Of a stretch of 64,000 nucleotides of DNA, positions 25,301-64,000 are shown one piece after another. The DNA is taken from the NCBI GenBank assembly GCA_965178125.1, contig OZ237774.1, positions 186,001 to 250,000 of the forward strand, written 5' to 3'. The DNA is from Bilabrum cf. latius (taxonomy: Eukaryota). The notes beneath the pieces were generated by a model, which ran no database searches, was not told where the DNA came from, and saw nothing but the letters and a program-made list of their open reading frames with translations. Made by a program: the position numbers and the translations under genes. Position 1 is the stretch's first letter; every line of letters starts with the position of its first letter.

Positions 25301-28300
25301 CTCATTCCCCAACAGCCCATGGTCGTCAAGCATCATGTCACGGAGTCTCTAGATCTCCGCCAGACCGGGCATAAACACCAGTATAGCACCAGGCGGGGCA
25401 TCGCTGCCACCACCAGAGCTCCCCGGCGGTCGCTCCGCTGGCTTGACTCCCCCGGGCGCGACCTCACCTTCCCCAGCTGGCGAGTGCAGAGTGATGTGCC
25501 TACACAGTCTCACGATCAGGTCGTAGTTGATTTCCTCCTGCTCCATCCGCCACAGCGACACTAGGGTATCGTCCGACTTGCCCGGGAACCGCTTCCGCAG
25601 GTCACGCAGCTCCTCGGACGAGGGGTCGGGAAACCCGCGGCTTCCACCACCCCCACCACCTCCACCACGGCCGCCGCGCCCACCCCCACCGCGGCCTCTT
25701 CCCCTGTCCCGCCCACGGTCTCCGCCCCGCCCGCGCCCGCCTCCACGCCCGCCACGGCCGCCACGACCCCCCCCTCGCCCACCGCCCTTGCTCTTGCCAC
25801 CCCCGCCTCCGCCGATGTCAGATCGTGCAAACTCGCTGGTGGCCTGACACGCATACCCGCACGCCTCCACTGCGTCCTCCAGCATCATCGTCTTGACCGG
25901 GTGCGCGCGCCCGGGGATCTCCACCACTGGGGTCGGGTGCGTGAGGATGCTGTGAGGGAGCGGCGGCACGCCCGGTCGGGGGGACGGCACGGGCACCACG
26001 GATCGCACTCCACCGGTGGATCCGTCCACCACAGCCATGCTGAGGGGCGCCCCATCGGCACCACCGTGCGCTGCACCCGCGGGCAGTTTCTGGAAATACT
26101 CGGCGAACATGTCCGCGTTCAGCGTCGCGCTCATCAGAACGACCCTGAGGTCGCGGCGCCGCCGCAGCAGGTTCCGCAAGATGATGATGAGGAAATCCGA
26201 GTCCACGCTCCTTTCGTGCACCTCGTCCACAAAGATTGCGCTGACTCCCAGCAGTTCATTGTCGCACTGCAGGCGACGGAGAAGCACCCCGGTGGTGCAG
26301 AAGAGCAGCCTGGTCCGCTTGGAACGGACGCTCTCCAGTCGGATCGAATAGCCGACCGTATCACCCAGCCTCTCCGCCCGCTCCTGCGCCACGCGATCCG
26401 CTACTCCCACGGCGCTGATCCGCCTGGGCTGCGTGCAGACGATGTTGCACCTTGCACCCTCCCCCCTCTCGCACGCGTCCTCGTACACGATCTGAGGCAG
26501 CTGCGTGGTTTTCCCGCACCCGGTTTCTCCGCTCACCACGACCACCTGGTGTTCCCTGACCGCCCTCACGATCCGATCCCTCATCTTGAAGGCGGGCAGG
26601 CCCTCCCTCTGGCGGAGCATCTTCTGAAAGGCCCGGTCGGAGCGCCTCTTCCTCTCGAGGTCGGACTGTAGCCTCGCGCTCTCTGCCCGCTCCATCGCAA
26701 TCGCAGTGGCAGACTCTCGAGGTGGAGGAGCGTGGGCAGATACAGAAGCATGGGAGGGTGCGGGATTGGATGTTCCACTTTGACCACCATCTGAGGCCTT
26801 GCGGCTGCTTTTTGCGGCTCGGCGCGCGGCGGCCCCGCCCGTTTCCCCGGCCCTGGCGCTGGAGCTGGCCTAGGAGCTGGCCTGATCCTGTTCCCCATCC
26901 TCCTGCTACCTGCTCTCATGTGCTGCCCCGTCTGCCTCATCCGCTTCTTTCGTTTCTCTGCTTTCCTACCCACCGGGAAACATCCAAGGCCACTCCTCTT
27001 TCTGTTCCTCGATTCCGGATAGCACGCCGGCCAGGAAGGAGTTGCCGGCGTAGGCTTCCGCGCTGGTGGGTGCTGCGGGGAGCTCTTCTTCGTCCTCATC
27101 TCCTTCCTGCCCATGTCCTGGTGGATCGGCACCAGCGCCACTGGCAGCCGGGACGAACGTTCCTAAGCCGCCAGAGGCCAGCGCAGCGGCGGCCGAAGCT
27201 GCAGTAGGCACCGCTGATACCACACCACCAGCACCGCCATGATGCATCCCCCCCATGCGTGCTTCATGTTCCGCGTCATCCGCGTCATCCTCGTCAGCTC
27301 CCGCCCCACTCGCCAGCTGTGCAGCCGCGTGTTCCCCGGCCACCACGTCGAGCAGTTCCTCCACCCCGTCTTCCCCCTCCTCTACACCAGCGGGCGCCTC
27401 ATCAATCTCCTCCTCCTCCTCGCTATCGCCAGCAGCACCACCACCCCCACGCCCCACCACCCTCACCGCCCCCTGTGCCGCCAGCCGTTTCCTCAGCAGA
27501 GCGAATGTGGGCATCCTGGCGCCCCTCGAGGGCCCGTGGGTTGGCCGGCCAATGCGCCCCCTGCGGCCAGCGATGACTCGAAACTCAGCAGCCGCCTCCT
27601 GCTTGGTCTGCTTGGCCAGCTCACTCGGGTCCACGCTCACACCCGCCTCCTTGGCCGTGGAGGCCGATGCCAGGGATCGGATCAAATTGTCCACCCCGCA
27701 CTTGGGGCACACGATGAGCAGTGTCGCCTCGCTGATTTCCCCCCGCGTCTCGAATGCCTGCCTCCAGCGGGTCTTGCGCTGGCACGCGCCGCACTCCCAA
27801 CCCTCGTCCGAGAGGGTGGCGAAAGCGGCGGGACGGAGCAGCCCACTTTGGCCACCCGATCCAGACCCACTCGCACCTGCAGCACCAGCTCCAGCACCTG
27901 CAGATGATGGCAAACTCAAGGGCCCCCCCCTACCCCCCCGGCCCCTACCAGACCCGCCGCCTCTGGCCCGCGCCGCTGCCTCCGCCCCCGCAGCCAGCAT
28001 GGCGTCAAGCTCAGCAGTCCACCCCACCTCGCCCCTTTGCGCGGCGAGAAGTTCCGCAGGCATGGGCAGGCCCAGCTTCTACCGCCGCTTGATCTCCGCC
28101 CGCAGAAGCGCCTTCCGCTCACCTGCTTGTTCCCTGGCGCGCCGCTGCGCCTGCTTGCGCCTGCCCGCCACCCACACGGCGAGGGCGAGGGGCCCTGCCC
28201 CCAGCTCCGGCCAGCGGGGCGCGCCCACAGCGACCTGGCGCGCCCCCACCGGCACACTTGTCACACCATTCGGTACCGCCGATTCTTTTGGTTGCAACCG

Positions 28301-31300
28301 CATGCCGAGCGCTTCCAGCTCCTCCGGGAACGGGGCAAGCCAGCGCAACCACAGGTCACGCTCCGTCGGCAATCCATCGGTGGATTGTTCTCTTGGCCCT
28401 GCAGCACCGATAGAACTGCTAGAACTCTTCTATGCAGCGTCATCCTTCGACGTTTTTCCTTGCTCGCTATCGTCCTCTCCTTTCTTCCGGCGGTTCCGGC
28501 GGGCCGCTCGCCTCTCCTTCAGCCGCTGCGCGCGGCGGCTCCTGGCGTCCACTTCACTCGTCACACTACTATCCGCGCCCGGGTCCGCCACCACACCGCC
28601 GCTGCTTCCCGGGGCGCTACCAGGTTCCTTGGAAGAACTCGTCACACCAGCCGCAGCGCTTGAAATGGTACCCGCCTGCTGCCTGCCCCCAGCACCGGCC
28701 CCTGCCCCTGCTCCAACCCCCGCCCCGCGGATCCATGACAGGAACCGGTGCAGGGAACCGCCCAACCCACCACTGGATTGGTGCAGGCGGGGCGTCGCCA
28801 CCAGGACAGAGTCGGTCACTGCCTTCGCTTCGTGACTCCTGAGCGACTGTGACGTCACTGTGACGCAGGGAGGGGGCCCCATCGGCGCGGGGTACGGGAG
28901 CCTGGGAGGCAGCACCGCCGTCATCGTCACACGGTGCCTCCACAACGGGGTGCTCCCATCACGGGCCAGAGAAACCTCCGGGAGATCGTTCCCTGTCAAT
29001 TTCGTGTGACGAGTGCCTCCGGTCGAGGCAGACGGCGCGGCGGCTGCCGATCGGCCGCTGGATGGTGCCGCCTGCGCGCTCGAGTCATCACCGGAAGCGG
29101 CAGCGACTCCGCTCGTCACACCGCCATTCCCTCCACCACGGTCATCCTGTCCATCTTCACTCGTCACACCCATCCTCTCCTTCTTCTTCTTCTCTCTTGC
29201 CGCCTCCTGCTCCTCGAACTCGGCCAGCGTGAAGCCGACCGCCAGCGCCACCTCCTTCCGCTTCTTCCGGTCCTTCGCCTCCTGCGCTGCGGAACCGGCG
29301 CCGCGCTTCGAGGAAGCACCGCTGCTCCCGGTGCCTTCGCTACCGCCACTGACCTCCGTTCCGGCTCCGGATCCAGCCGATCCGATCCCTAGCTGCTTCC
29401 TCCGGAGCTTCTGCTCATCGACCATCGCAGGGCCCAACGTGGCTGCGGAACCTCCGCGCGCGGCGCCAATGGAACCCCCATTAGGGGCAGGGGGTGCCCC
29501 TGGGGGTCTAGAGGGCAACATCACGTCGATTTCGACCTCGATTCTCCAGGCGGCATCTCTGCTCCTGCGGTGCACCTCGGCTGCAAATGCAGGACTCCCA
29601 GGGTCGGTTCCCGCAGCGGCTGGGTCGTAAGGCGTGGGGTCTATAATCTCCCGCCACGTGTCGGCGTGACCACTCTGACCACCTTTCGGATCTTTGGATC
29701 CGCTGGTCGCCGATGGCAGCAGGGGACCGGCAGCGGACGGATCAGCCGCCCTCGGTGCACCGTCGTGCGATGCACCCTCACGCACTCGCACGCGAACGGA
29801 CCCATTCGGCGGAAGCATACCGTCTACTTTCGCCACTGCCCCCGATCCGGCCCCCGATCCACCGGTGGATGGGGCCAGCAGCCTCAGACCTACGATTTCC
29901 TCGCACCTGCGCGATAAGAGGTCCCCCCAGTCCAGCGACTTTGCCCACCCCGGCGCTTCCACCAATTCTGACTTGCCAATTTCATCACCTTTGCTCGCCT
30001 CGGAATCGGAGCCCCAAACCAGCGTGCGGGCGGCAGCCGCAGAGCCGCTGCCACAGTCCTTCGACCCCTTGCTGCCCTTTCCCTTGCCCTTGTCCGGGCC
30101 AGCTGATTCTAGAGTGGAGGCAAACGACCCCTCCGACGCAAGCAGGATCAGCCTGCCCCACCCTGACACAGGATCTTCACTCGTCACATCGCGACCCGCT
30201 GCCTCGGCCAGCACTGCAGCGGCCCTGTCCCTGCATAGGGCCCACCTCGCGATCGACTCGTCCTCACTCGTCACAGCTCCCTCACTCGTCACACCCGACG
30301 ACCTGCTTGCCCCAAATCCTGCCCCAATCCACCGGTGGATCGCAGCGGAGGCTCCCAGCGCCACCTCCACCTCCCGGCCGGCGAACCCCAGCGACAGCAG
30401 AGCGAACCTTCGCTGCTCCCGACCCCAGTCGATCTCCGTCTGCAACCGGAGAACCAGCCGACCCCCACTCGTCACACCATCACCACCACCCGCCTCCGCC
30501 GCCGCCCTCCCCAGCGCCAGCAGGTGCTTCGACAAGATGGCCCCTTCTGCCTTCCTCGCCTGGGCCAGGGCCTCCGCCGCCTCCTGGATCCGCGCCTCTC
30601 TCGCTGCCCTGAGTCGCTTCCGGCGGTCGCCTGCCAGCTCCGGGAGGGCAGCTGCCAGCTCCTCCTCGGGGCAGCGGATGCAGAGCCAGTCCAGGGCCGC
30701 GACCAGGTCCGATCCACCGGTGGATCGGAGGGCGGCCTTGGCCCTGGAGGGATCGAAGGTGTAGTGACGAGTGAGGTGGTGCAGAAGCGCCACACTGTAC
30801 CGAGCACCATCATCCTCCTCGTCTTCATCTTCGTTTTTGTCCTCGTCCTCGTCGTCATCCGCGTCCTCGTCCTCGTCTTCAGCTCCTGCTTCGCTACCGC
30901 CATCGTCTTCATCTCCGTCCTCCCCGTCAGCACCGCCTGCCTCTGCGCCTGGCGTGTCCTCTTGCTTAGATTCCTAGTCTTCACGTTCACCTTCACCTTC
31001 ACCTTCATCCTCATCTTCATCCTCTGGATGCGTTTCCTCATCCTCAGCCTCTTCGTCCTCCTCCTCGTCCTCCTCCTCGTCATCCGAGGTTTTTCCCTCC
31101 GTCACTCCAAGGATATCCAGCACGATGTTCCTCGACCGATCGCTCAGGCCCATCGACGGCACTGGCCCGCGCGTGAGCCGCTTCACCACAGGGACTGCAC
31201 CGGGAACTGGCCCGGTCGCGTTGAATCCTCCGCCGGCGTCGTCCTCGTCGTTCCGCAGGAGAGACCGGAGACCTGGACCGGAAGAATTTGGATCAAACGC

Positions 31301-31591
31301 AACTCCGCCGTCGTCATCATCCGCGAACGCAGACTTGAGCAGGTGGGACGGTGCGGCCCTCTTTCCTTCGCCCGAGCTGCCATCCTTTCTGCCATTCTTA
31401 GAAGAGTTTCCGCGTCCTCTTCCCCGAACTCCCCTTCCCCGTTTCCCTCCGCCTCGCATGCGCTCCAAGTTCCATTTGGAAAACATGTTGCTGCGGGAAA
31501 CTTGGCTCACATCAATCACACGGCGGCCTCGGCCTCGGCCTTTACCGCCTCTTCCACGACCTCGACCGCCTCTTCCTCCTCTCCCTGGCAT
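22352..31591 (-). CDS. DHX57: DExH-box RNA helicase, DHX57/DHX29/DHX36 family (~3080 aa)
   Basis: N-terminal RGG; UBA-like ALDWLC; motif I GETGCGKTTQ; CTQPRRISA; DEVH; SAT; ILVFMPG; STNIAETSVTIDDV; QRRGRAGR; HA2 LGYHLAQLPVDPRLGKML; OB-fold LHPSSVN..YLEKVKTSKVYVRD. One frame throughout with 12 TAG (30974, 28430, 28079, 26966, 26906, 26870, 25349, 24845, 24266, 23378, 23336, 22928). Ends TGA. The subfamily assignment is tentative. Confidence 0.88.
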
Positions 31592-31809
31592 AGTGCTAAT
31601 ATATTCAAAACGATCCGAATGCACTTGAATGCAAGAGTGATTGAACCGTACACTGTATACTGCAAAGTGGAGATCTGGTCGGCCAAAAGTGCAGTCTACT
31701 GTGGCGGAACTTGCCCTTGCTGCAGCAAGTGTTTGCAAACTGCCCACTCCAAGAGCACGCAACAGGCGCATATAAAGTCGCCCAAAGGAGCTCATTTAAG
31801 CTTGTAAGC

Positions 31810-32506
31810 ATGTTAACTTCAAACAGTAGGCGGAATACCCCGGAAAACGGAGCTACTGTACCAATTCGTCCGTCCAAGGATGGGGAGCGAGCACCGCTGC
31901 TAACCTTGTCCTAGGCGAAGACGCTGAAGGTGCAGATAGCCAAGCGGGCAAAGAGGATCAGACATCACATGAAGGCCTGTATGAAGACGCTATCAATCCA
32001 TGAGTGGGTGCATATTCCCATGGCTGAAGGCAGTTCTGTGCATCCTGCTCGCCTGTCTCCAGATATATATGGACAGCTACACCAGCATTGACACGTGTCT
32101 TACTTTATACTTCTGGATGTTTTGCCGTATTGAAGGCAGCCAAGCATTGGAAGCATTCAGTGCCATCCTTGATGGCCTCAACCGCAAGAAGGCGAGCACG
32201 GTCAAATCCGTCGAAGATGAGTGCATGCATGAGATCATGCACCTGGCGGCCAGTACATTGACTGGTATTAGCTTGATGAGCTCCCCTCCGTTCGGTTTTT
32301 CGACTCCGGTCAAGCTGTTCCTCCTCGTATTCTGGTGGCAGCTGGAGGACTTCTCCAGCGAATACTGGACGCAGCAAGCACAGGAGCAGGTAGCAAGTTT
32401 GGAGGAGATAGCTCAAGCGACCGCAGAGCAGCGCAAGGTGGTAAAGCGTTACATTAAGAGGCTGAAGTCCATGGCAGCATCTAGCTCGCGACACTCGTTG
32501 ATGTAA
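31810..32506 (+). CDS. Small hypothetical protein, probably intron-containing
   Basis: ATG at 31810 with a TAG at 31912 and coding-like continuation. Possible short introns. The last segment (LEDFSSEYWTQQAQEQ...) ends in TAA. Exon structure not resolved. Confidence 0.3.
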
Positions 32507-32698: not shown

Positions 32699-35600
32699 TC
32701 AGCTGCTCCCTTCCTTCTTACCACCCGCCCCACCCGCCGCCGCTCCGTGCTCGCCCGCCCGCCGCTCCGCCTCCTCCAGCCCGCGCACAAGCCCTGCAAA
32801 CGCGCTCGACTCGTCTCTCAGCAGCTCCTCCGGCGGTCCCGCCTCCAGGAGACAGCCGTCGCCCAACACGAGGATCTTGTCGCACTCCCTGATCGAGTGA
32901 ACACGGTGCGCGATCGTCAGCACAGTGGCCCCGCCGAACTCCCTCCGGATCGTCTCCTGAAGCACGGCATCGCTTTCAGCATCTAAATTCGCGGTTGCCT
33001 CGTCCATCACGCAGATCTTCCTCCTCTGCAGAAGTGCCCGCGCCATGCACAGCAGCTGACGCTCCCCGTGGGACCAGTTCTCACCTCCGTCCGCCACCTC
33101 GTCCCCCAGCCCCGCCCCCAGGGCCTCCACCTTCCGACGCATGCCCACCTTCCCCAGCGCGTCCATCAATTCAGATTCCGAGTACTGCCCCGTGGGATCC
33201 AGGTTCTGCCTGAGGGAACCGGAGAAGAGAGCCGCGTCCTGCGGCAAAATCGTCATGCTGGACCGCAGCCGGGGCAGGGGCACGTCCTGCACCTCCACCC
33301 CGTCGATCAGCAGCCCGCCCTCCTGCACATCGGACAACCGGAACAAGGTGGACACGAGGCTCGATTTGCCCGAGCCGGTCTTTCCGCATATGCCCACCTT
33401 TTCCCCCGGTCGGATGGTGCAGCTGAGGCCCTTGAGCACTTCTGGCAGCTCAGGCCTGTACCGCATCCTGAGGCCTCGGATCTCGATCTGGCCCCTCGAG
33501 GGCCAATCCGCCGGTGGATTGGCCGATCCATCCGTGGGCTCCATGGGCAGCTCCGCGTATTCCCTCACCCGCTCCACCGCCACGATCATGGTCTCTGCCT
33601 GGCTGGCCATCCGCACCAGCCAGTTGAGCGCCTGGGTCAGCCCCAGGGCGTACGAGATGGACAACCCGGCGAGGGATGCGTCCACTTTGCCCCTCCCAAT
33701 CACCGCGAACAGGGCGGAGCCGCACGCCACCAGCGTGCCCACCAGCTCGAGCCGCACTGCCAGCCAACGGTTGGCAGACGTGGAAGCGAAATACGCCGAC
33801 TGCTGCTTGTCCAGCCGAGACTCGTTCTGCCTCGCGAACCGCTCCGTGTCCCCGTAGGCCCGGATGGTCACTGCTCCCACGAGCACCTCAGAGAAGCTCT
33901 GGTAGATGGGCGACCGCAGCACGGAATCGAGCCGCTTCAGCTGCCTTGAGGTCGATACATAGAACCGCTGGATGTAGACGTAATACGCAAGGAGCGGGCC
34001 CACCATGAGCAGAAAGTACGGTGTCACCGACGCCACCACCGCGATGGTGGTCAAACCCGAGAACAGGCACACGAAAAAGGAGGCCAGAGTGGGCATCAGC
34101 TTCTCGTCGATCGTGTACATGTCGTTGCCCGCGCGGTTCAGGATCCGCCCCTGCGGAGTCACGTCGAAGAAGGACTGGAACGCGCGCAGCACCCGACCGA
34201 TGAAGCTGTCGTGCAGCACGCTGGCGGCGCGCACTGCTGCCAGCGCTAGACTGAACCGCAGCACCACCAGCAGAAGGAGCGCGCCACCAGCGATGCCGGC
34301 GTAGACGCCCAGGTACCACGTCCCCGAATGTTCCCCGGGGTTCGCTTTCTGCAGGCGGGTCCATTCAGACAGCCACCAGGACGCCGAGGCCTGGCCTCCC
34401 TGCTGCAGCATGAACAGTATGACGAGTGCGGTGCACACGATCGGACCCCCCAGCGCCTCGAAGTACCCAAGGAACACCTTGAGGCTGACTTCCCCCTCCT
34501 CCGCTTTCTCCACTGTTGTCTGTTTGCCCACCCCGAGCGACTCGCCCGCTTTGCTCCTCGCCCCGATCCCGCCGACCCCGCTGCTGGCGCTGCTACTGCT
34601 GCTCCTGGGCACCTTGCTGGCTCCAGCTGCTGGTGCATCCACGTCAACCAGAACCCCCTCCGGCACCGGGTCCGTGGCTCGGATCACCGGTGATCCGATC
34701 ACGGGCGATCCGATCTTTGCGTCGGGGGAGCCAGGGTCATCCTAATCCCCATCTCCATCCCCCACACTATCGCCATCACTATCTCCGCCATTCCCAATGT
34801 CGGCATCGATGACCCCCGGTGCATCATCATCGCCTGCGTTTCCCGACGAACGTTCCTTGGCCCTCCGAGCCTCCTGCTCGTAGGCCGCCAGCAGCTCCCC
34901 AAACATGCTCCCTTCCCTGTCTTTGAGCTGCCCGTACGTGCCCCGCTCCGCCAACCGACCCTGGCTCAGCACCAGGATCTCGCGGGCCGCACCCGCGTAC
35001 TGCAGCCCGTGCGTGACGAGCACCCTCGTCTTGTTCCCCAGCAGCCCAAGGATGCACTGCCTGTAGATCCCGTTGCCCACATGAGCATCCACGGCGCTCA
35101 GCACGTCGTCCAGCAGGTACACGTCGGCGTCTGCGTACACGGCTCGCGCGAGCCCCACCCTCGCCCGCTGCCCCCCCGAGATGCCCACACCCTTCTCCCC
35201 GATCTCCGTGGCATCGCCCGCTGGCAGCATGGCCAGGTCGCCCTCCAGCTGGCAAGCCCTCACAACCTTGCGATACCGCATCACGTCCAGCTGCCTGCCG
35301 AACAGGATGTTATCCCGCACGCTCGCGTTCAAAATGAAAGGAGTCTGACCGGCGTACGCCACCCGGCCCCTCACTACCACCTCCCCGCTCAGCCGAGACA
35401 TCTCGCCCAGCAGGGCCATCAGCAGCGAGGACTTCCCGCTGCCCACGTGGCCCACCACCACGGACAGGGACCCAGCAGGCACTCGGAAGTCGATGCCGCG
35501 GAGGTATCCGCCGCTCCCCTCGCGCATCCTGCGGCCCAGGGCCTTGGACGAAGCCTCACTCGTCACACCCGCCTTGCCCTCCTCGGCAGAGGCCGCAGCT

Positions 35601-38467
35601 GCCGCCGCCGCTGCATCGTCCGCGGACGGCCCCTGGTAGGACTCGGCTGCCTTGGCACCCCCGGGGCCGCCGTGCAGCTCGGCGGTCCCCTGCTTGCCCT
35701 TTTTCTTCGAATCACCTGTCCCATCCGCGCCAGTTGCGCTTCCTTTGCTCTTCTCACCCTCACCCTCGTCCCCTTCGCTCTCGTCTTCTTCCTCACCCAG
35801 CAGTGACCCGGTCGCGCCCTTCCAGCGGAACGAGGCGCCGCGCACCTCCAGGGCCGACGGCAGCACGGATCGCTTCTCCTTCTCATCCTCCTCGTCCTCC
35901 GCACTGCCGTGCGATGCACCCCGGGGGGCGCTCACGTCGGCCGGCACGGGGGGCAGTGCCAGCCTGGCGGCGGGGTCCACTTCCTCTGCCGTGAGGAAGG
36001 TGTGCAGCCGCTTGAGAGTGACCGTGGCTTCGACGATGTTGTTGATCACCATCGGAACTGCCGACAGCGGGAACCGCAGGATATTGAAGAGACTCAGGGA
36101 CACGAATGCCTTCTAGGCAGTGAGCGTGTGCCCCGACAGGGTGAAGGCAGTGAAGGCAGCCACGGCCACGAGCATGGGCAGGCCCGTCCACATCACGTTC
36201 GAGATGGCCTGCAAAAAGAGGTACATGCGCAGCTGCTGCAGCTCGCTGTCGCGTTGTTCCCTGATCCGATCCTCGAACCGCGACTCCCACGCGGACAGCT
36301 TGATCAGCCGGATCCCCTGGATCGCCTCGTTGGTGGAATCCACCCTCCTGTCCTTCCTCTGCATTAGCTCCGACTGCAGCCATTTCTGCAGCCGAGCCAC
36401 GCCCAAGTTGACGGGGATGAACAGCACCATGACCGCCACCCCAGCGAGCACAGAGGGGCCCATCTGCCTCCACAGAAAGTACAGAGACAGCGACATCTGG
36501 AAAGGGCCGCTCACCACCATGGCAAGGTAAGTCGTCAGGTCCTGCATGCGGGTCGCATCCGTGGACAGGAGGTTCACGATGCGACCCACCCGGGCGGACT
36601 GCCTCGCGCCCACGGACAACCGAAGCGCTTTCCGAAAGACCCCAATCACCACCGAGGATCGAAGCACCTGGCCGACCCGGAACACGCGGAGGAAGTACTG
36701 GTGCAGCAGCGCCGTGGCGAGCACAGACACAGCAAACAGAGTGGCCACGTACCCGTACCCCACTCCCGCAGTGGCGCCTTTCTTGCCCTCTGAGAAATCC
36801 TGCAGATACGTGATGATGGCATCCAGCAGGTTCGGTCCCACGAACTGAAGACAGTCGTACAGCAGCTTCAGCAGCAGGGCGCCGTAGAACTGGCCGCCGA
36901 ACGCCACCGCCAGCGACCACCACAGCTGCGGCTCCTGCGAGCCATTCAAACAGCCGCAGCACAGCGAACCAGGCGCATCCTCGGTGCGGCTGCCTCGGGA
37001 CCCGGAGCCTCCACTTCCGGATTTACCCGGAGACGAGGACGATGCGGCGAGCAGCGAAGTGCGCGCGCCAGGCGACGCGCCGCCACCGCGAGCACTCGTC
37101 ACAGGGCTCAGGTCAGCGTAAGGGCTCCCGGGCGCACTCATGGACTCCTTCGCATCAGGGGAGGACGCGACCGCCGGGGATGCGGAACCGAATCCGGCGC
37201 CGCGCATCGCCCTGGCCCTGGCCGCCTCTGCCCTCCTGCACTCGGCCCGCCACGCGCCGTCAAAGGCGCCCCTCACTGACTCGGAATCGTCCCCTTTGGA
37301 CAGCCCGGGGACGTCCTCCGCCTGCAGGGGCCTAGCCCAGCCCAGCAGCATGAGCGGGCTCAACCAGACGAAATACACCCGGCTGCACAGCCCGGCCCGC
37401 TCCTCGGGGCTCCTCGACCGGAAGGAGCCCGTCTCGCCGTCCTCCTTGGCGATCGCTGCGGAACCGTAACCTCCAGATTGCGCGGCGCCGGAAGGACCGT
37501 CCGTGAGGGAACCGTACCCGCCCCCGGCCCCCGACCTGGGGGCCCCCGCACCACCGTGCACTGCACCCGAAGTCGCGAAGGCCACCTTCTCGCCCTCACC
37601 GTAGCCCCCCACCGCAGCCAGTGCGGATTCTGCGTCGCACGCGCACAGCATCGCCGCCCAGCCGCAGAGCGCCTCCCCCCAGGACATGCGTCCCTGTGTG
37701 ACGAGTGGGATTCGGAGCAGGTACCAGAGCGCGGGCAGGGCCAGAGCTCCCGCCACCGAGGCGTGGGCGATGCTGAACGCGTCTAGGGCGTTGCGACCCG
37801 CGTCCGCGTGCTTGCCTGCATCGAACTGCAGCGCGGACACGACCAGCTGCACCAGCTCGCACCCGAAGGCCAGCACCCACCACGACAGCACGTAGTCAGG
37901 GACGGACACGGGAGCGTCGGGTCTGGTGAATGCCGTCCCGTCCTATTCCTCTTCTTCCTCCAGGTACTCATCGTCGTCCTATCCATCCCCCACGATACCC
38001 CCGCTGCAGCAAGCTCGCCCCGCCCCCCGCTCCAGCCGCTGCACCAGCGCGCCCGCGTTGAGCAGAAATGCAGCGCCGCACACGGCCGCGTACAGAAAGG
38101 CCGAGAATCGAACCGAGCTGCTGTCGTGCTCCACGGAACCGATGTATCCGCCACCAACGAGAGTTATTTCGATCAGTGGCAGAATGGCTAGCAGCACGGA
38201 GAGAGCGACGGAGATCCAACCCAGAGTGCGAGGCATCACACGGACGTGGGGCGGTGGCGACAGCCGGTGCTTGCCTGCCGCGGCGTACGCCCGAGTCGGC
38301 TGTTCCTAAGACACTCCCCCAAATGCAAACGGCAGCGCAAGCACAAAAATGGCAGCTGCTGGCACTAGGATGAAGGACTGCACAATGCAGTGCGATGCCG
38401 TGGTGCTCCCGCACATGGCCTCCGCGGCCGACCGGAAGAAATTATGCGCTACTTCGGTCTAGTTCAT
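32699..38467 (-). CDS. ABCC/MRP-family ABC transporter (~1920 aa, with TMD0-like N-terminus)
   Basis: NBD1 GHVGSGKSS, ISGGQRARV, YLLDDVLSAVDAHVG; NBD2 GKTGSGKSS, NWSHGERQL, MDEATA, TIAHR; FFDVTPQGRILNR; SLSLFNILRFPL. Single frame with TAG at 38459, 38306, 37979, 37943, 36113 and 34742. Ends TGA. Alternative start at 38416. Confidence 0.93.
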
Positions 38468-40824: not shown

Positions 40825-41802
40825 ATGCTGCGCAGAGCAACTGCAACTGCTCGACAAATGCTGCTAGCAGTACACAGCGGCGCGAAGCGACCAGCGAGCA
40901 GATTCTTGTCATCTGCACGACAACCTGGAGTTGGTGTTGTGGCACACGTGTTCCCAGGCCGATGGGTCGACCATGACGGGCAAGGCAACAAAGACACCAT
41001 TCTCGTTGATCTACGACACATGGTGCAAATTGTGCGCGGCCATCCTCCCGCGAAAGGCCACATATCGTCTCCCGGTGGCAAGCTCGAGTGGGGTGAAAGG
41101 CTAGAAGAAGCTGCTATTCGTGAAGTTAGCGAGGAAACCGGGCTGCCTGAAGAGAGCCTCCTCCTCCCGCCCAGCCCGCTCGCCACGGTCACATAGGCGA
41201 TTGGAGCAAGTGCTCCACCGGGAAATGAGCAAGACCACTCGCCCGAGTACCACTACGTCCTAGCCCACATGTGCGTCGTTGCGATGCAAGCACCACTGGA
41301 AGCGAGCAAGAGACGCAGCGGAAGGCAGGCGAAACCCCCCTGCCACTGGCTTGGCTCACATGATGCTACTAGCAGCACAATGGCTGGGCAGATTGACAGC
41401 GCAATCGCCAGGGCACTCGACAGACCTTATTACTCCGACGATAATCTAAGCCCACAGTGTGTGCAGCGGTTGCAACCGGCTCCTCCTCTGCTCTTGCCCG
41501 AGGTACGGGCTCTGGATGATGCGGCAGCGGCGGGATGGGTGCGGACTGCCGAGGTGCTGGCCGCGTGCGGTGTGACGAGTGTTGGACCCGATGGGTAGAG
41601 CGTTGATGTAGAAGTCATGCCGGCTGCAGACGTGCAGGGCGGTGCGGAGTCCACCGGTGGATCAGTGCTGGGCCTGTGCGAGCTGGGGGCACAAGCAGGT
41701 CTTGATGGCTCCCAGGCCCCGCCGTGCGTGAGCGGGCACAGGGAGGCCGTACTGGCTGCGATCGGGTGCATGGCACGGTAGTGCAATACGATGGAGGCCT
41801 GA
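40825..41802 (+). CDS. NUDIX hydrolase with putative mitochondrial targeting peptide
   Basis: Nudix box PGGKLEWGERLEEAAIREVSEETGL. The downstream motifs YHYVLAH and ALDDAAAAGW are reached via TAG at 41194; further TAG at 41596 and 41779. Ends TGA 41800-41802. Confidence 0.82.
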
Positions 41803-41968: not shown

Positions 41969-43699
41969 TTAAGTGACCCGCACTCGCACCAGAGGTGTCC
42001 CGCTGTCCCTCCTCCCCACCGCCCTTTTCTCGGCTGCCTGCAGCCACCGCTCCATCGACGGCGTGAAAGGTGACTGCCCAGACCCCGGAACTGGTCGGCC
42101 CCGCGAGCTCCTCGCACTCATCACACCTCTGCGATCACTCGTCACACCGAGCAGGCCACTGGGCGACGTGGGAAGCTCCAGGTCGGTGCACCGGCGGGCC
42201 GCCCCGCCTGCTCTCGCACTCGTCACACCAGATGCAGCCGGCCCGCCGTCCCCGATGCGCAACTGGGGCACAAACGCTGGGGGAGTCCGGCGACGAATCA
42301 GCTCCGAGTCCGCGGTCCCGCGGGCGCCATTCCGAAGCGGACCACCGGTGGCGGCAGCGTGCTGGCCGCGGCCTGGCTAGACCTGCCCCTGCCCCTGCCC
42401 CAGCAGCACAGTGGCGGCGGCTCGTGCTGCCCTCGCCCCGCACTCGTCACAGCCTAGTCGCCTCGGCGCAGGCCGGGTAGGCGTGTGTGGCCCTGATGAG
42501 GCGCTCGCCGCGGAGGTAGCCCTCCCACGGCGAACCTGGTGTGACGAGTGCGATCGCGCGGCAGGCGTGTTGTTGCCGCGCCCCTCCCCCTCCAAGGTGC
42601 CTTGTTGCCCTGACGTTGATGCGGCGCGACTCGGAGTCTATAATGAATGGCTGGCATCCGATCGGCAGCGGTCCCTATCGGAAATGCCGCTGCTGCTACT
42701 GCTGCTGCAGCTTCCAATCGTCCCGCTGGCTGCCCCCACTGGCAGCTATTGCCCTTGCTTCAGGTCACGGCCCACCACCACTTGCTGCGTGTCACCAACA
42801 CGGGGGATACTCCCCGAATGCAATGCCAGAGATAATACCATACTACCCTCGGCATCACCGCCGCCGCTGCCGGCATGGTTGTCGCTGGCTGATTCCGAGC
42901 AGGAATCGCCAGGCGCAGTTGCATCGATATCCTGCTCGCACGAAAGCACCTGCTTCGCGCGATAACGGGCCTACCGTGAGCTTTTCGCTACCTACACGGC
43001 CTCCCATATAATCCAGCCCAATACAAGGATCAGCTAAGCTACCGAAGAGCAGAGTAAAGCTTCGCTTCGCCGCTGCAGCCCGGGCGGATGGTGCCAAGAG
43101 GTGCTCTGCAACTGCTGCACAGCTTCAGCTGCCGCCGTTGACCCGTGCACATGCCTACTTTCCACAGCTAGTATGGCTGATACGGCCTTGCCACGCAAGC
43201 TATGCTTGCTGAGCCCCAGCTCGTGCGAATCGGGGGAAAGCATTCCGTGAGACCACGCAATCACCAATCCTAGCGACATTACAGAGACAGCCGCAGATAC
43301 CAGTGGTCCAAGGGAGCGATATGCTAGCTTCAAGGTTCGTGCACTGCTATTGGAATCGCTATCATCGATTCCTAGCAGCTGTGACCAGGCCGCAACCCAG
43401 CCCGCGCGAAGCGACAGCATCGTGGGCGCCAACCAAATAAACGCCCAAGCAGCGGCGTGTAGCAGCAAAAGTATGCTCAATTTTGATTGCATTGCGTTCC
43501 ACAAAAGCGCTAGGGCTGGAATGTGTCTGCCCTGGTGAGCGATGAACTCGCCGCCCGCATCCATTGGTAGTGCTGAGCAAACGGCACAAACGACGCAGCC
43601 TGCTAGCGATATTGTCACGAGACACGCCTTTGCAGCTATAAATATGCATGTGTTCTGGTTCTAGTCGGGTTGTAGCATTGCTGCACCATCCATTGCCAT
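41969..43699 (-). CDS. Hypothetical membrane protein with disordered C-terminus
   Basis: ORFs 43661.., 43034.., 42746.., 42377.. and 41969.. share a frame, joined by TAG (43661, 43034, 42992, 42971, 42746, 42638, 42377). Hydrophobic helices in the N-terminal half. Terminates at TAA 41969-41971. Start uncertain. Confidence 0.5.
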
Positions 43700-44368
43700 A
43701 TTGATTGTGCTCAAAGGTCCGTTCTTCTTGTCAATGTGTAGTAAATGAATGATGAAGATCATGACGTACAACCGTTGCCTAGATCTAGCGCAACGGAGCA
43801 CGATTTGCGCACCTGGACCGTGGCAGCACACAAGTCGGTCACGTAAAATCACCGGACTATTTTATCCTATGGCCTTAGACGCCCGATGTGCCCCGTCTGC
43901 TGCCTCGTCACGGCCACAAGGCCCTTTGTAACAATGGTGGGTGGCCTGCGTCGGGGGCGGGCGCAGGTGCCGTCGAACCCACCGCTGCCTTCAATGGCCG
44001 GGCCATGCGAGTCGCGGACACGGGGCACGCTGACTTGTAGAAGCCCAGGGGTTCAGGCTACTTGTGGGGGAGAGTGTGGGTGTGAATACGAGTAGCCCCA
44101 GTCGATAGAGTGCCAGAGGCGGGGGACAGGGGCGAGGTGGTGCGGATGGGGATGGGTGGCAGGGCGCTGTACACGATGTAGGATGGTTCTACTGGATGTG
44201 GACTGCTTGCAGCTTGTACAGCACCCATTCAAGCTGTGTGCCGCAGTGTAGATCCAATGGATGTAGCTACTAGCTACGCTTGGGTTCGAAATACGGTGCT
44301 ATTTGATAGAAATCTGAAATAATGTGCAAGAGCCAATGCATGTGGCACAGCACTCTCAATCCGTCACC

Positions 44369-47300
44369 ATGGCATCTGCCATCGACCGTGACTTGATGTT
44401 GCACAGCTTGACTGTGCGTGATCCGGGCGCAATCACAGATTGCGCCTACGGGTCGTTCACAAGTCCCGGTAGGAACGAGTTCGCCACGCTTCGAGGCGGC
44501 ACGGTGCTTGAGATTTCCAGGTCTGATGCATTGAACCGGCTAGTATCCGTTTGTAAAGTGCAGTTGTTTGCTCTAGGTAGGTGTATTCGGCCAGCACGCC
44601 TCATTGGGACAAAGCAGGACTACGTCGTCCTCACCAGTGATAGCGGTAGGCTCACAGTGTTCGGTTGGGACGCCAAACGGGCCACTATGCAGCAGGTGAG
44701 ATACTAAACCATGCAATTCATCGGTCCGATCAGCTGGGATAGTGATGCCTGCCGCACATATCACCAAGTGCGGCCTCCCAACCTCGACCGACCCCATGCA
44801 CTTGCTGCGGCCAGCACACACGTCGTCCCCCGCCCGCGAATCACCATCGCTTACTGTCCGCAGGTGCATTGCGAGCCCATGGGCCACAGCGGAGCAGGCC
44901 GTCTCACCCCCGGGCAGTACCTGGCCGTGGACCCACTGGGGCGAGCGCTGATGGCGGCGGCGGTGGAGGCCCGGCGGCTGGTCTTCGTGCTGGGCAGGGA
45001 CTCGTCCGTGGTGGGCGCCGGGGGAGGGTCCGCTGACGGTCCGGGGACCGACAGATCGGAGGAGGCCGCCCGCAGGCAGGACCGTTCCATGGGTGGATCG
45101 CTCACCATCAGCAGCCCGGTGGATGCGCACACCCCCGGTGTGATCACACTGGCGCTGCAGGCCCTGGACACTGGGCACGACAATCCCGCGTTCGTGGCGT
45201 TGGAATTGGAATACGACGACGAAGCAATGGAGGACGAGGACGATGATGACGAGGACGAGGATGGGGAGGGTGATGGTGATGCTGCTGCAAAGCGCATGCC
45301 CGCGGGGATCCAGCACCCAACCGCGTCTGCGGTTGCAACCGGCACGGGGGCCAGGGTACCCCCGGGGGCAGGAGCGGGCACGGGGGGGCAGCCCGTCCCC
45401 CTCCCACCCCCGGGCCCCGCCAGGGAACAACGGGAATCGGACGACAGTGCCGCCGAGCAGGCAAGGCCATGGCGCACGCCGGCCGAGGCACAGGCCAGGG
45501 CGGAAGAGTGCGCGGCGCCGGGAGATGTTCCGCCGCCGCCCCCTCGCGGCCGGCGCAAGGTGGTGTCTGTGTACGAGCTGGACCTGGGGATCAACTCGGT
45601 GAGGAGGCGCTGGAGGGGGCCTGCACCGGCGGGGGCCAGCTCCCTGCTGCCAGTGCCGGCGGGGCGGGGCGGCCCGGGGGGCTGGCTGGTGCTGGGCGAG
45701 GACCTGCTGATGTACCAGAGCGAGAACTCGGAGCCCATTGCCGTGCGCGTGCCTCGCCGGCACGACACGCCCGACGACCGCAGAGTGCTGGCCGTGTCTG
45801 GCGCCACCTTTCAGCGCAAGAGCGTGATGTTTAGCCTGGTGCAGACGGAGCAGGGGGACCTGTTCCGTGTCTTGCTGCACCCCAGGGAACAACCGATGGC
45901 GGGCGAGGGAGGCCTGCAGGGGGGCAAGTGGGCGGGCGGGCCAGGCGCGGTGCAGGTGCGCTACCTGGACACTGTTCCCCCGGTGTGCGCCCCCCTGCAG
46001 ATCACGAGGGCCGCCCAGCTGTTCGCCCCCTGCGAGGGGCAGGACGCGATGCTGTTCCGGTTTACCAACCTGGGTGACCCCAAGGAGGGGGACGGGTGGG
46101 AGGTGGTGGAGGCGGTGGGGAAGCCCGCAGACCTTGGGGACGATGAGGGGGAGGGGGGGCACGATGGGGAGGACGAGGATCAGGAGGAGGCGCTGGTGTT
46201 TGAGCCCAGGGCCCTGCGGAACCTCGAGCTGGTGGACGAGTCGCATTGCGCGGCGCCCTGCACCGACATGGTGGTGGGTGACGTGGCCGCCGCCGGTGAC
46301 CCAGGGAACAGCCTCAGCGGGGGCCTGCACCAGCTGTACGCGCTCTGTGGGAGAGGAGCAGGCGGCTCCTTGCGGGTGTGGAGGCATGGCGTAGAGGCCT
46401 CGGGCGCGGGGGAGCTGGCGCTGCCGGGTGTGCCCGACCGGGTGTTCGCGCTGGGGTCAGGGGCGGGAAGCGGCGAGACTGTGGCTGAGGCGGCGGCTGC
46501 GGCTGCTGCGGCGGGGGAAGAGGACGAGGGGGGCGCGGCTCAAGGGGCGGGGAGTAGCGTGCGGTTTGACCGACACATCCTGGTCTCGTTCCCCAACGCC
46601 ACCCTGGCCCTGCGCGTGAGCGGCGGCTCGGAGGATGGTGGCCAGGAGGGGGCGGACGGTGAGGCATCAGCTCCGATCGACGAAGACCGTACGACTCCGT
46701 TCTTCCGCGGTGGTCCCACCCTCGCTGCGTGCGTGCTGGAGGACGCCAGAGCGGCTGCGGGGGGGGCGAGGTACTCCGTGGTGCAGGTGCACCCTGGGGG
46801 CGTGCGGGTGCTGCAGACCGGCGGGGGTGGCAATGGGGCGAGCAAGGGCGGCGTGGACGGTGGCCAAACCGGCGGACCTCCGTCGGATGCAGACGTGAAC
46901 GAGTGGGCACCCAAGTCGGGCACGCACATCTCACGCGCGGCCTGCAATGGGAGGCAGGTGCTTGTGCTGCTGGGTGACCTGACCCTCCAGTACTTTGAAG
47001 CAGACCCCGTCACGGGCGAGCTGAGGGACCTCCTGTCGCAGCAGGCCCCCGCTGCGCGGGCCGATGGGGCGGGGTCGGGCGTGCCGTCGGACGCTGTGAC
47101 GGCGCTGGCGCTGGCGCCCGTGCGGCGGGGGCGGCTGCGGGCCTCCTTCGCCGCGATCGGGGACGCTGCTGGCGCCGTGCGGCTGATCAGCCTCGCCCCC
47201 GGGGAGGGCTGCTTGCAGCAGGTTGCAACCGCTGTGCTCAGGGCCCCCGCAGTGTCCCTGGCATTCCAGGAGCTGTCCCCCACTGTGGGGCAGGCGGCGG

Positions 47301-50080
47301 AGGCGGCGGCCGCTGCGGAAGAAGCGGAGATGCGGGCCGGGGGTGATGTGGCGGCGGCGGAGGCAGCCGAGGTGCTGCGGGCGGGTCAGCTGCAGCTGCT
47401 TGCGGGCCAGGCGGACGGGAGTGTGACGAGCATGAGGGTGGACGACGGGGCCGCTGGGGCGCTGGGCGGGGCGGGCGTGTCCATCGGCGGTGTGGCGGTG
47501 GCGGCCAGCGGGTCTCTAAGGGACGCGACGACTCATTTCGTGGGGGCTGGGGGCGTGCAGGTGGAGCCGGTGCGGCTGCCTGACGACGCAGCCGAGAGGA
47601 TCGGATCATCGGGGGAGGGCGTTGGGGCGGCCATGGCGAGGGCCCGGGCGGGGGAGGGGGTCCCCTCTGTGCTCGCCCTAAGCTCAAGGGCCAGCGTGTG
47701 CGCCGCTGCGCAGGGGCCTGGGGCCGTGCAGCCCCTGGCTCTGGCCGGCAGGATCGACGCGGCGTGCTCCTTCCACTGGGAGCAGTGCCCGCACGGGATC
47801 GCGGCGGTGAGCGGGAGCACGCTGCGGATCCTGAGGGCGCCCGCGGCCAGGGGGTCGGCGTGGACGAAGCGAACGTTCCCTCTGAGGTACACCCCCAGGA
47901 AGGCGTGCCCCGTGCCGGGTACGCCCCTCCTAGCCGTAGTGCAGGCGGATGCCCACTGCTACTGCGCGGCAGATCGGGCTGAGCTGGCACAGGCGCTGGT
48001 GCAGGCGCAGGCAGACGAGGACGAGGACGAAGAGGAGGAGGATTAGTAGGATGGAAAGGAAGCGAAGGAGGGTGGTGGCGCGGCTGCCTCTGTGTGTGCC
48101 GAGGAACAAGCCGTGGCGGGGGCTCGTCGCGCTGCCATGCAGGCTGAGGCAGCGGAAGCGGGGGAGGAGGATGAGGCGGATGATGGAGGCAAGGTGGGCC
48201 CAGCCGATGGGGCGCTTGTGCGACTGGCCGCGGGGGAGGGGGAGAAATTCGTGCCCCTGGCAGCAGGTGTGACGAGTGCTCGGTACCCCGGCCACCCCAG
48301 CCACGTGGAGGGCATGCGCGAGATGGGGGCGGACCCCGGTCTGGAGGGTGTGTGCCTCAGGCGGGTGGGGTATCCCTTGCCCCCTGGGGAGGGGCCTTGG
48401 GCCTCGTGCGTGTCGCTGTTTGACGCGTCGGGGAGGGGTCTGCAGCCAGTGAAGGGTGGATCGAAGGGGGGCGGAGGCTAGGTCAAGGAAGGGGGAGACG
48501 AGGAAGAGGAAGAGGAAGACGAGGAGGGGCAGCTGGGGGAGCCCGATGGCAGCCTGCTGGGATCGGCGGAAATGCCCGAGGGAGTGGCGGCATTGAGCGT
48601 GGCCGCAGTGCGATTCGACGAGGGTTTGGCCACCTCTGGGATCAGGAGCGCGAGGGGAAGGGCAGGCAGCAGCAGCAGCCCTTGGTACGTGGCTGTGGGG
48701 TGCGTGCGCGGCCTGAGGTACCATCCCACGCGACTCAGGGGGGCGTGCATCCGGACCTACAGGGTGGTTCCAGGGAACAAGGAGGGGGAAGAGGACGGTG
48801 GCCAATCAGGGGGTGGTCAAAGCGGGTGGGCGGGATGCCGGCTGGTGTTTGTGCACGAGACGCAGGTCCCCGGCCCGCCTTTGGCCATGCGTTCCTTCCA
48901 GGGCCGGCTCCTGGTGGGTGTCGGGCGAGGCCTGCTCATGTTTGGGATGGGGCAGAGGCGGTTGCTGCGGAAGGCCGGATTCGAGGGGCTGCCCACCAGG
49001 GCGGCGTGCATCGAGATCATGCCCAGGAGAATTGACTCGGCCGCTGCTGCGCTGGGCGGGATGGCAGGAGGAGGCCCAGCTCCTGGTTCGTCTTCTTCTT
49101 CGTCTTCTTCGGCGTCTTCCGGTGCTGGTGCCTCGGGGGGGCAGGAAGAAGCGGCGGCGGGGGAACAGGCGGACCCGAGCTAGGGCCAGGTGTCTCTGTC
49201 GGCCATGCTGTCTGCCGCGGCGGTGCGGTCGGGCACTACGCATGGCAGAGACGGTGCCGCTGGCCAGAGGAAGAAGAGCCTGGCTCTCGCAGCTCTGGCC
49301 GCCCTGGTCAAGCCCAGCGTGCCCACCCACCTGGAGGATCCCTTGGAGCACGACTCGCTCGTGCAGTCGGAACGAATAGCCGTGGGGGACGGGCAGGAAG
49401 GCGTCGTTGTTCTCCGGTGGAGGCGCGCGAGCCAGAGCTTCGGGGTGCTGGGCGAGGACACGATCCCAAGGCACTGCACCTGCCTGTGCCCTCTGGACTA
49501 CCACACGGTGGCGGTGGGGGACAAGTTCGGGAACGTGGCTGTAGTGCGACTGCCGGAGGACGCTTCGGGGGAGGGCGAGATGGGAGTGAGCGCGGCGGAC
49601 GGGGTGCGGGCGCTGTGGGAAGGGGGCGCCAGTGGGGGCAGGATGAAGGCGCCCGGGCTGGAGCAGGTGTGCCACACGCACCTGGGGTCCGCCGTGACGG
49701 CGCTGCGGCCGGCGCGCATGCCCGGGGGCGGCGAGGTGGTGCTGGCATCGACGGTGACCGGCGGGCTGATGGCCCTGCAGCCGCTGCAGACGAGGCGAGA
49801 CATCGCGTTCGCCACGACGCTAGAAAGGTTCCTTCGGGCTCAGCGGGTGCCCGCGCTGAGCCCGGTGGGGCGGAGGCACGTCGCCTTCAGGGGAGCGTAC
49901 GTGCCGGTGCAGCGAGTGGTGGACGGAGACTACATGGAGCAGGTACTGGAGCTGCCGGCGGGGGCGAGGACAGCGCTCGCGGATGACATGGGAGACGTGG
50001 CGGGTGCGGCAGGTGCGACGGGGCGGCGGGTCGCGATGGAGAGGAAGGTCAGGAAGTTGCGCGCCCAGGTTGGGGTATGA
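44369..50080 (+). CDS. SF3B3: Splicing factor 3B subunit 3 (Rse1/SAP130), ~1850 aa with low-complexity insertions
   Basis: DYVVLTSDSGRL; intron 44696-44863; PGQYLAVDPLGRA; YELDLGIN; LVQTEQGDLF; QLYALCGRG; FPLRYTPRK; FQGRLLVGVG; LDYHTVAVGDKFGNV; GRRHVAFRGAYVPVQRVVDGD. TAG at 48044, 48047, 48479 and 49181. Ends TGA. Confidence 0.95.
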
Positions 50081-50459: not shown

Positions 50460-52727
<2,268 letters not shown>

Positions 52728-53697
52728 ACTCAACTCAACATGTACCCCATTCCGGGCGTCCTACGGGGCACACACCCGAACCGAGGCTCGAACACAGCCT
52801 CGTTTGCCCCGCGAGCAGCTGCGGCACACATCTTCATCTTTCACGTTGTGTACCGGTTGCAACCAAAACCTCCTCCAGCCAACGAATCGCACGCTATCCT
52901 GCAGAAGCAGATCCAGGGCCTTTTCCTTCGCGTGTGAGACTCCTTAGGCGGTTGTGTGGTTAGTATTTGTTATAAAAGTGCTGTTTATGCCGCCTCACCG
53001 CCGGATGTTGCTACTTTGGTTGAGGTAGGGTTCTCCTAGGCCCGTGACAAGCAAGCCAAAGTTATTCAACTCTTAAATGATAGTGTAACGTTTCCATTGG
53101 ATCGCCCCTCCAAGGAGGAACTTTAGAATCTTTGCAAGTTAATTGATTTCCTTGATTGTGAAGCTTGGTTGGCTCTGAGGGACGCCGGGGAACGATTTGG
53201 CAGGGCAGCCGTTTAGCCTCGAACTCCGGCTTCGGGCACCTGCTCGGGCCCGCAAGAACAGTCCTGCCGGCCGAAGGCCGATCTTTCTCAGAGCATCCAC
53301 GTTATGAACCTTTTGTGGAGGTTGGTGGCACGGCGGGGGCACATTTCGTGGCGGAAAGGCCTGCCGAGCATCTCGTGGGTGCCGCGGCCGTTTATCGCGT
53401 GCGACCGCCGAGCGTCGACTCGGGGTGCTGCCCGGCCCATCAGGCCCTCTGCGCAGCGATGTACGGCGGATTTCGTGTCACCGTATACATTTGTATCACA
53501 TCTGTCTCGGTTTGGTTGCTAAGATCTTGTATGTTGTTCGATAGTGTGTATTTGGTCCCTCTGTTGCATCTTTCCCCGCCATGGCCCACTCGTTTCGAAG
53601 CCCCTCTCGCTTTTTCTTTATCGCAGTTTCTTCCGAGGAAACCGATCGAGACTGTGTACTTGAGAAAGACATTTTGAGCGAGCGGACGCAACTTATC

Positions 53698-63245: not shown

Positions 63246-64000
63246 TCAATTTTCACTACCTTCACGTCGTTTTTTGGCCTAACCGCCACCCTAAGGCAAA
63301 TCAGCTTCTTCACGCGATCGTTTCTTGCTTTCTGCAGACTCTGCGCTGTCCTTTAGCTGAGTTTTCACCTCGCCACGTTCTACTGCAGTAACACCATCGA
63401 ACCATTGATGATCAAGACAATCCTGAGCTGATATTCTTTTGGAAGCATCGGGACAAAGAAGTTGCCTAACAAGATCTTTAGCGTCGAGAGACACTGATGA
63501 CCAGTATTTCGAAGGGAAACTCCACTTGACACCCGATCCCAGCTTGTTGAGTGCCTCGTCGCTGAATGGAGGTCTACCTGACAATACAATGTACATGATG
63601 ACTCCAACTGACCACATATCTGCAGACAAGCCATACCTCCCGGCACCAAAGTGAGTGTCTTTACGTTCCAATACTTCTGGAGCAAAATACTGCGAAAAAA
63701 AGAAAAATTTATGAAATTTATTAACAGTTTATATACAAGAGGAAACATGAATTACGTAGAGAGGGCCTTTGTGCTCGCTCACCTGTGGAGATCCAACATA
63801 AGTTTTGAGCCCTTCGAACCCCAAGGTTCTTGCTACACCAAAGTCTGCAAGAACCGGCACCGTATCACAAGCTGGGTCTTCACTAGCAAGCAAAATGTTC
63901 TCAGGTTTCAAGTCCCTATGCATGATCTCCCGGTCGTGAAGATATTTGACAGCATCCAGAATTCCTTTCATGAGAACTTTTGCTCTGCTTTCCGGGTATG
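63246..64000 (-). CDS. Ser/Thr protein kinase, CAMK group (CHK2-like), C-terminal part
   Basis: HRDLKPENILL; ADFG; GSPQ|YFAPE across GT-AG intron 63690-63782; DMWSVGV; RISA. TAG at 63291 and 63279, then AKKRREGSEN-TGA at 63246. Confidence 0.9.

Follow-up and report, generated by a model that had tools for sequence, protein, structure and literature searches.

The nuclear genes in a 64,000-nucleotide stretch of contig OZ237774.1 (Bilabrum cf. latius, positions 186,001 to 250,000; hereafter the window) are crossed in frame by dozens of TAG codons and by no TAA. We consider it probable that the organism reads UAG as glutamine (Gln) while keeping both UAA and UGA as terminators, the code listed as NCBI table 15; this is probably a known kind of code in a new carrier. 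Judged by alignment, TAG is shown to be a sense codon at positions that relatives fill with Gln, and its predicted reading as Gln in the window genes is well supported. TAA, for its part, is shown to be barred from coding frames as fully as TGA. UAA likely still terminates translation, a view that draws on one gene, which closes on a TAA at 41969 (the 41969 gene). A first-pass annotation of this DNA had proposed that UAG is decoupled from UAA and encodes Gln, and the aligned Gln sites, together with zero in-frame TAA where about 6 to 22 would be expected, bear that proposal out.

The window is 64% G+C, and G+C at third codon positions (GC3) is 0.6 to 0.9 in most of its genes. Under the standard stop codons it breaks into many medium-sized frames; with TAG read through, these give way to a handful of very long frames (2103, 2671, 3147, 1922, 1789, 1184, and 1050 codons), and without a sense TAG the frames of 1050 to 3147 codons would not be open. 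Eukaryotic nuclear genes were identified through Pfam and PDB searches of the window proteins, and with TAG as sense we accepted 14 credible nuclear genes, among them those of Table 1, PRP38, and a TIG-domain membrane protein. Stop codons were counted in two sets of frames. The 12 long frames (16,783 codons) contain 58 TAG, 0 TAA, and 0 TGA in frame. The 17 refined coding segments (17,415 codons) contain 62, 0, and 0, respectively; in this set two mini-exons of the FG-GAP repeat gene (30 codons) lay one base off register, and the corrected model adds no stop. Both totals agree with the roughly 60 sense TAG codons claimed earlier. The accepted genes terminate on TGA in 13 cases and on TAA in one, in line with the earlier count of twelve or more TGA-ending genes. 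TAG terminates none, the second feature of table 15 that we looked for, and not one of the 14 genes needs a TAG end, although this absence of TAG terminators rests on a small sample in which every TAG was read through by construction.

What TAG encodes can be seen at the seven TAG sites of the window for which a relative supplies an aligned residue. Besides characterized homologs, these relatives include P0001, a call made under the standard code, and L001, a metagenome contig (1-3477). At codon 785 of the ABCC transporter, the window sequence 'ltaXkafvslslfnilrfpl', with X for TAG, aligns with 'ldaQKAFVSLALFNILRFPL' of MRP1. Gln is also aligned with TAG at codon 2149 of the DEAH helicase and at codons 273 and 287 of the 41969 gene (Table 1), and codon 294 of the latter is TAG in the window and TAG in L001 too. 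In the reverse comparison, two of three aligned L001 TAG sites stand opposite a Gln of the window, and the third falls in an acidic low-complexity tract. All four TAG codons of SF3B3 lie within insertions that human SF3B3 does not have. UAG at positions where relatives have Gln in conserved genes, the first feature of table 15 that we sought, is thereby present. TAG accounts for 7.8% of the Gln codons in the window genes and is more frequent in genes with lower GC3, as expected if the codon arises from CAG through a C-to-T change and is then tolerated.

A dual meaning of UAG, set by context so that it is sense within genes and a stop at some gene ends, would reduce the contrast between TAA and TAG to one of degree; we give this reading scarcely any credence. 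Since all TAG codons were read through, a gene that truly ends on TAG would have been over-extended, and the helicase does carry TAG at codons 2806, 2820, and 2956, beyond its last homology. The helicase frame, however, meets no TAA or TGA in the 341 codons past codon 2806, and in SF3B3, the ABCC transporter, and class-II lysyl-tRNA synthetase (LysRS) homology continues beyond every TAG until a TGA is reached. The TAG at which P0001 ends likewise has conserved sequence downstream of it, both in the window and in L001. The idea that all in-frame TAG codons are instead missed introns was rejected: two of them lie within ungapped conserved blocks, and frames of more than 1000 codons free of TGA and TAA contradict it as well.

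The first-pass annotation had found no in-frame TAA inside any recognizable gene, and we count 0 in 17,415 codons, a zero that is partly built in, as the frames were themselves bounded by TAA and TGA. We therefore compared it with what the genes' own codon usage predicts for a synonym of TAG. A CAA/CAG ratio of 0.170 predicts 10.5 TAA in the 17,415 codons (probability of zero, 2.7e-5), the TTA/TTG ratio predicts 6.2 (probability of zero, 0.002), the AAA/AAG and GAA/GAG ratios predict 14 to 21, and gene-specific purine-pair ratios predict 22. Stretches bracketed by homology alone (6 genes, 6,494 codons) hold 16 TAG, 0 TAA, and 0 TGA; the prediction there is 3.7 TAA from all four purine-ending pairs (P of zero, 0.024). 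The frame edges are informative too: one frame closes on TAA, and a TAA just upstream of the first ATG marks the boundary of a few. Any sense TAA hidden by the way frames were drawn would have to sit at such edges, and 10 or more sense TAA scattered inside genes would not yield TAA at edges only. We conclude that TAA is no regular sense codon. Its absence from coding frames, the third feature of table 15, extends from the window sets (0 of 17,415 and 0 of 6,494 codons) to L001 (0 of 909).

Where a TAA does break a conserved frame, it lies within an ordinary GT-AG intron. This holds for three of three cases (44705, 12006, and 63729), and the introns of the window measure 89 to 168 nt. Excision of the SF3B3 intron makes the product colinear with human SF3B3. 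The FG-GAP frame that seems to end at the TAA at 12006-12008 was rejected as a gene model; the gene crosses three GT-AG introns and ends on a TGA at 13131-13133, its Ser/Thr/Pro-rich stalk is continuous over every splice junction, and a transmembrane helix precedes the terminal TGA.

That UAA and UAG both encode Gln, as in codes of the table 6 type, with TAA missing through GC pressure and a small sample, is in our view quite improbable. The composition of the window lends it something: most genes have a GC3 of 0.6 to 0.9, codons that end in A are disfavored (CAA/CAG 0.17), and the homology-bracketed comparison taken alone does not decide the matter (P of 0.16 to 0.024). But A-ending partners are far from absent from the coding segments, where CAA occurs 106 times and TTA at least 14 times, yet TAA stands at 0 against 62 TAG, and the in-frame UAA at conserved Gln positions that table 6 entails was not found. 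In the genes least biased toward GC (7113-8348, the NUDIX gene, the last kinase exon, and the 41969 gene; A/G ratios of 0.40 to 1.38) there are 16 TAG and 0 TAA. The 909 codons of L001, with GC3 of 0.50 and 0.62 and a CAA:CAG ratio of 10:14, contain 9 TAG and 0 TAA, where arithmetic from its own counts gives an expectation of 6.4 TAA (P of zero about 0.002). Outside coding frames, moreover, TAA shows up at once: 175 in 11,755 bases of noncoding DNA with both strands counted, 20 in one off-frame of the coding sequence and 34 in the other, and 9 in frame among the 520 codons downstream of the 13 TGA stops.

Whether UAA still terminates is a separate matter, on which the 41969 gene bears most directly. 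By its conservation we take the gene to be real: its N-terminal half recurs in two relatives, and in L001 it is paired divergently with SF3B3. Residues 121-286 are 86% identical to P0001 over 166 residues, and the syntenic L001 gene matches residues 60-329 at 31% identity; a Pfam search of the product gave no match. Over the C-terminal 340 codons, no other frame of the minus strand remains open. The earlier remark that AT-richer DNA and another TAA follow its terminator proved accurate: G+C falls from 0.68 in the 120 nt before the TAA to 0.47 in the 120 nt after it, and in-frame TAA codons recur at +12 and +36 codons. The next in-frame TGA comes only at +118 codons. The convergent NUDIX gene has its stop codon 166 bp from that of the 41969 gene, and read-through would carry the frame 118 codons into it. 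UAA thus likely remains a terminator, because this gene ends on TAA and because eRF1 recognizes UAA by default.

Earlier, two candidate genes had been offered as ending in TAA, and with them the claim that TAA remains a stop. The 41969 gene is a credible case and lends that claim weak support; the other candidate fails. We rejected as a gene the 168-codon plus-strand frame 32000..32506, with its TAA at 32504-32506: it has no Pfam match and no relative among 5.8 billion proteins, G+C rises past its TAA from 0.53 to 0.68, and it sits in a 900-bp spacer on the strand opposite to the two minus-strand genes that flank it.

UGA could instead be the sole working terminator, with UAA avoided or unassigned and the TAA at 41969 not a true gene end (a mis-modelled 3' end, or termination by other means), a reading that we hold to be unlikely. 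In its favor, TGA ends 13 of the 14 genes, the lone TAA-ending gene has no C-terminal homology, and the two other apparent TAA ends (32504 and 12006) have dissolved. The composition break at 41969, however, resembles that at the TGA stops, all 13 of which show the drop in G+C, and a contig piece of sequencing run X7 (41943-42196) is colinear across the TAA with no joint. Nor is scant use of TAA among stops unusual in GC-rich genomes, and we know of no eRF1 that lacks UAA recognition where UAA is also undecoded.

Several observations weigh against the table 15 code. Two aligned TAG sites do not point to Gln: helicase codon 2317 stands opposite Ile/Val, and LysRS codon 677, beside a gap, stands opposite Leu. 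TAA ends only 1 of 14 genes, and the C-terminus of that gene has no homology anchor, as the L001 contig stops before the end of the ortholog and a search of residues 288-627 against shorter proteins found no relatives. The test of TAA exclusion that is independent of frame definition is weak, with an expectation of 1.9 TAA from CAA/CAG in the homology-bracketed stretches (P=0.16). The runs used as transcript evidence, X5 and X7, are only guessed to be RNA. Finally, the window holds no tRNA or eRF1 gene to examine: ARAGORN and Rfam found no tRNA gene within these 64 kb, and Rfam found no other RNA family in them.

Were UAG read as Gln with UAA left as a terminator, the predicted decoder would be a tRNA-Gln whose anticodon, CUA, differs by a single base from that of tRNA-Gln(CUG). 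Its C34 would pair with G and not with A, so that UAA would stay unread. The need for CUA is argued in part of a published account of such codes, where a UUA anticodon is said to read both codons (PMC5304391). The eRF1 of the organism would have lost or weakened its recognition of UAG and kept that of UAA and UGA.

The same reading of TAG extends beyond the window. A metagenome scan with P0007 recovered L001 and L002; one with SF3B3 gave no confirmed locus, as its peptide patterns fell in nonconserved acidic tracts. L001 keeps the divergent pair formed by the ortholog of the 41969 gene and SF3B3, including the first intron of the latter, with identities to the window of 66% for SF3B3 and only 31% for the 41969-gene ortholog. 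A relative of the window organism thus occurs in environmental metagenomes, L001 being a metagenome contig with a shared gene pair, and at least two relatives share the TAG reading, one of them from environmental metagenomes. A protein search with SF3B3 returned three matches at 30 to 32% identity, two of them from Coemansia, which are too few and too dependent on shared words for placement. We can only tentatively suggest, with confidence a little short of even, that the window organism, P0001, and L001 belong to an undescribed clade of GC-rich, intron-bearing eukaryotes that inherited a UAG-only Gln code, terminates almost wholly on UGA, and acquired the code independently of ciliates and fornicates.

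The code itself has precedents. According to the parts of the two reports that concern these organisms, UAG is read as Gln and UAA kept as a stop by a fornicate, Iotanema spirale (PMC5304391), as well as by three ciliates, Protocruzia tuzeti, Hartmannula sinica, and Trochilia petrani (PMC11687900), so the earlier judgement that a UAG-only Gln code is exceptional was overstated. In the account of I. spirale (PMC5304391) the likeness is close: UAG is Gln, no in-frame UAA occurs, UAG makes up about 8% of Gln codons (7.8% here), and the predicted mechanism is a tRNA-Gln(CUA) with an altered eRF1, for which a T32G change in the GTS motif is given. There, however, UAA is the dominant stop, whereas here TGA ends 13 genes and TAA one; the present genome is also 64% G+C, with GT-AG introns of 89 to 168 nt. 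The ciliates Hartmannula, Trochilia, and Protocruzia share the codon table, as deduced in the sections of PMC11687900 devoted to them from internal UAG where Gln is conserved and from alignments of C-termini, but in phyllopharyngean ciliates UAA closes 93.5 to 100% of such C-terminal alignments, unlike the dominance of TGA here. The high G+C, the long proteins of low complexity, and introns of the ordinary kind speak against a ciliate.

Other reassignments resemble the present one in part. UAG alone has changed in the rhizarian exLh, to Leu, and in Scotinosphaera, to Ser (as mentioned in PMC5304391 and PMC11687900); UAG is decoupled from UAA in these as it is here, but the residue aligned with TAG in the window is Gln at most informative sites, not Leu or Ser. 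UAA is the dominant stop in the rhizarian, according to the portion of PMC5304391 that treats it. Table 6 codes, reported in relevant parts of PMC5304391, PMC11687900, and PMC6299283 from many ciliates, Hexamita, Dasycladales, Streblomastix, and Amoeboaphelidium protococcarum, likewise turn a stop codon into Gln, but TAA is Gln there too, and we find 0 TAA. Apart from Iotanema, our literature search found no GC-rich non-ciliate with UAG as Gln. As far as the portions of these sources go, cases that split UAG from UAA are few (the rhizarian, Iotanema, Scotinosphaera, and some ciliates), and they lend themselves naturally to testing why UAA and UAG mostly change as a pair. A lineage of high G+C with UGA as its main terminator would be a new compositional setting for such a test, as UAA dominates in those earlier cases for which the same portions give stop figures. 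There is a practical side as well, for gene callers set to the standard code or to table 6 would produce faulty annotations of this genome and its relatives: both P0001 and P0002 are truncated calls, each cut at a TAG.

Table 1. Positions in the window of the genes, introns, and individual codons discussed in the text.
Feature	Position	Strand	Remarks
TAA terminator	41969..41971	-	Closes 627-codon gene 41969-43852; sole credible TAA terminator in the window
41969 gene	41969..43852	-	627 codons; 7 in-frame TAG; membrane-protein-like N-terminal half, low-complexity C-terminal half
TAG, 41969-gene codon 273	43034..43036	-	Opposite Gln in both P0001 and L001
TAG, 41969-gene codon 287	42992..42994	-	Opposite Gln in L001; P0001 stops exactly before it
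TAG, ABCC codon 785	36113..36115	-	Opposite Gln of MRP1; ungapped conserved transmembrane block
TAG, helicase codon 2149	25349..25351	-	Opposite Gln of DHX29, Ser of DHX36
SF3B3/RSE1 exon 2	44864..50080	+	4 in-frame TAG; TGA terminator; homology-supported C-terminus
SF3B3 intron	44696..44863	+	168 nt, in frame, GTGAGA..CAG; in-frame TAA at 44705-44707
ABCC/MRP transporter	32699..38467	-	6 in-frame TAG; TGA terminator; homology-supported C-terminus
Class-II LysRS	50460..52892	-	TGA terminator; homology-supported C-terminus
DHX29-like DEAH helicase	22352..31795	-	3147 codons; 12 in-frame TAG; TGA terminator
NUDIX gene	40825..41802	+	Pfam NUDIX E=1.4e-11; 3 in-frame TAG; TGA end
FG-GAP repeat gene, spliced	10236-11957, 12061-12126, 12250-12273, 12375-13133	+	In frame; 1 TAG; TGA end
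FG-GAP introns	11958-12060, 12127-12249, 12274-12374	+	First is GTGAGT..CAG and contains TAA 12006-12008
Protein kinase gene, right window end	63246-64000	-	2 in-frame TAG in tail; TGA end
Protein kinase intron	63690..63782	-	GTGAGC..CAG; in-frame TAA at 63729-63731
PRP38 intron	40410-40498		GT-AG

Contigs assembled from the sequencing runs were compared with the window over 39710-53400, a span that leaves site 32504 outside; a repeat lies at 39579-39702. In X5, contigs are broken where exons of PRP38 (40410) and SF3B3 (44860) begin, and the one that starts at 44860 has 316 unplaced letters, the length of 44380-44695, which we take as SF3B3 exon 1. The LysRS contigs of X5 and X7 share both ends (50385/50388 to 52790/52788). 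Breaks at exon starts and shared LysRS ends would fit RNA. The run contigs show no other letters over the compared span, which counts against editing of TAG only if the runs are RNA. The LysRS frame reaches upstream of the ends of its contigs (region 52728-52892, minus strand), and because contigs of two runs end at 52788/52790, the true start of the protein is probably the Met at codon 56, which would place the TAG at codon 44 in the 5' leader.

The kinase gene at the right end has a GC3 of only 0.37 to 0.43 in surroundings of 51% G+C, while other genes reach 0.6 to 0.9. The plus-strand frames 14214-22229 and 53425-56979 (2671 and 1184 codons) match no Pfam family; they are mostly rich in Gly/Ala/Arg/Ser or consist of poly-Gln/poly-Ala low complexity, and are free of TGA and TAA throughout.

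Low-complexity inserts also host a recurrent 8-mer, TGACGAGT, usually inside GGTGTGACGAGTG. It has 32 copies in the window with both strands counted, whereas mononucleotide shuffles average 1.3 and reach 5 at most; sites at 30291, 30273, 42225, 42144, 38961/38954, and 22243 are examples. Most copies are on the sense strand of genes, and the frame is nearly always the one that reads Gly-Val-Thr-Ser, within inserts of the helicase, the ABCC transporter, SF3B3, the NUDIX gene, the 41969 gene, and the 14214 gene. The 8-mer is absent from L001 and L002 (5 kb). It looks like an element at the nucleotide level, because the GGT and AGT codons it entails should be rare at high GC3 (an inferred expectation, not a tally). 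The TGA stop of PRP38 falls within a tandem copy of it. A direct repeat of 119 nt at 92% identity (9209-9327 and 13959-14077, 4,750 bp apart) flanks the FG-GAP gene, and the frames around its two copies, 8869-9310 and 13382-14060, carry the same peptide strings on both strands.

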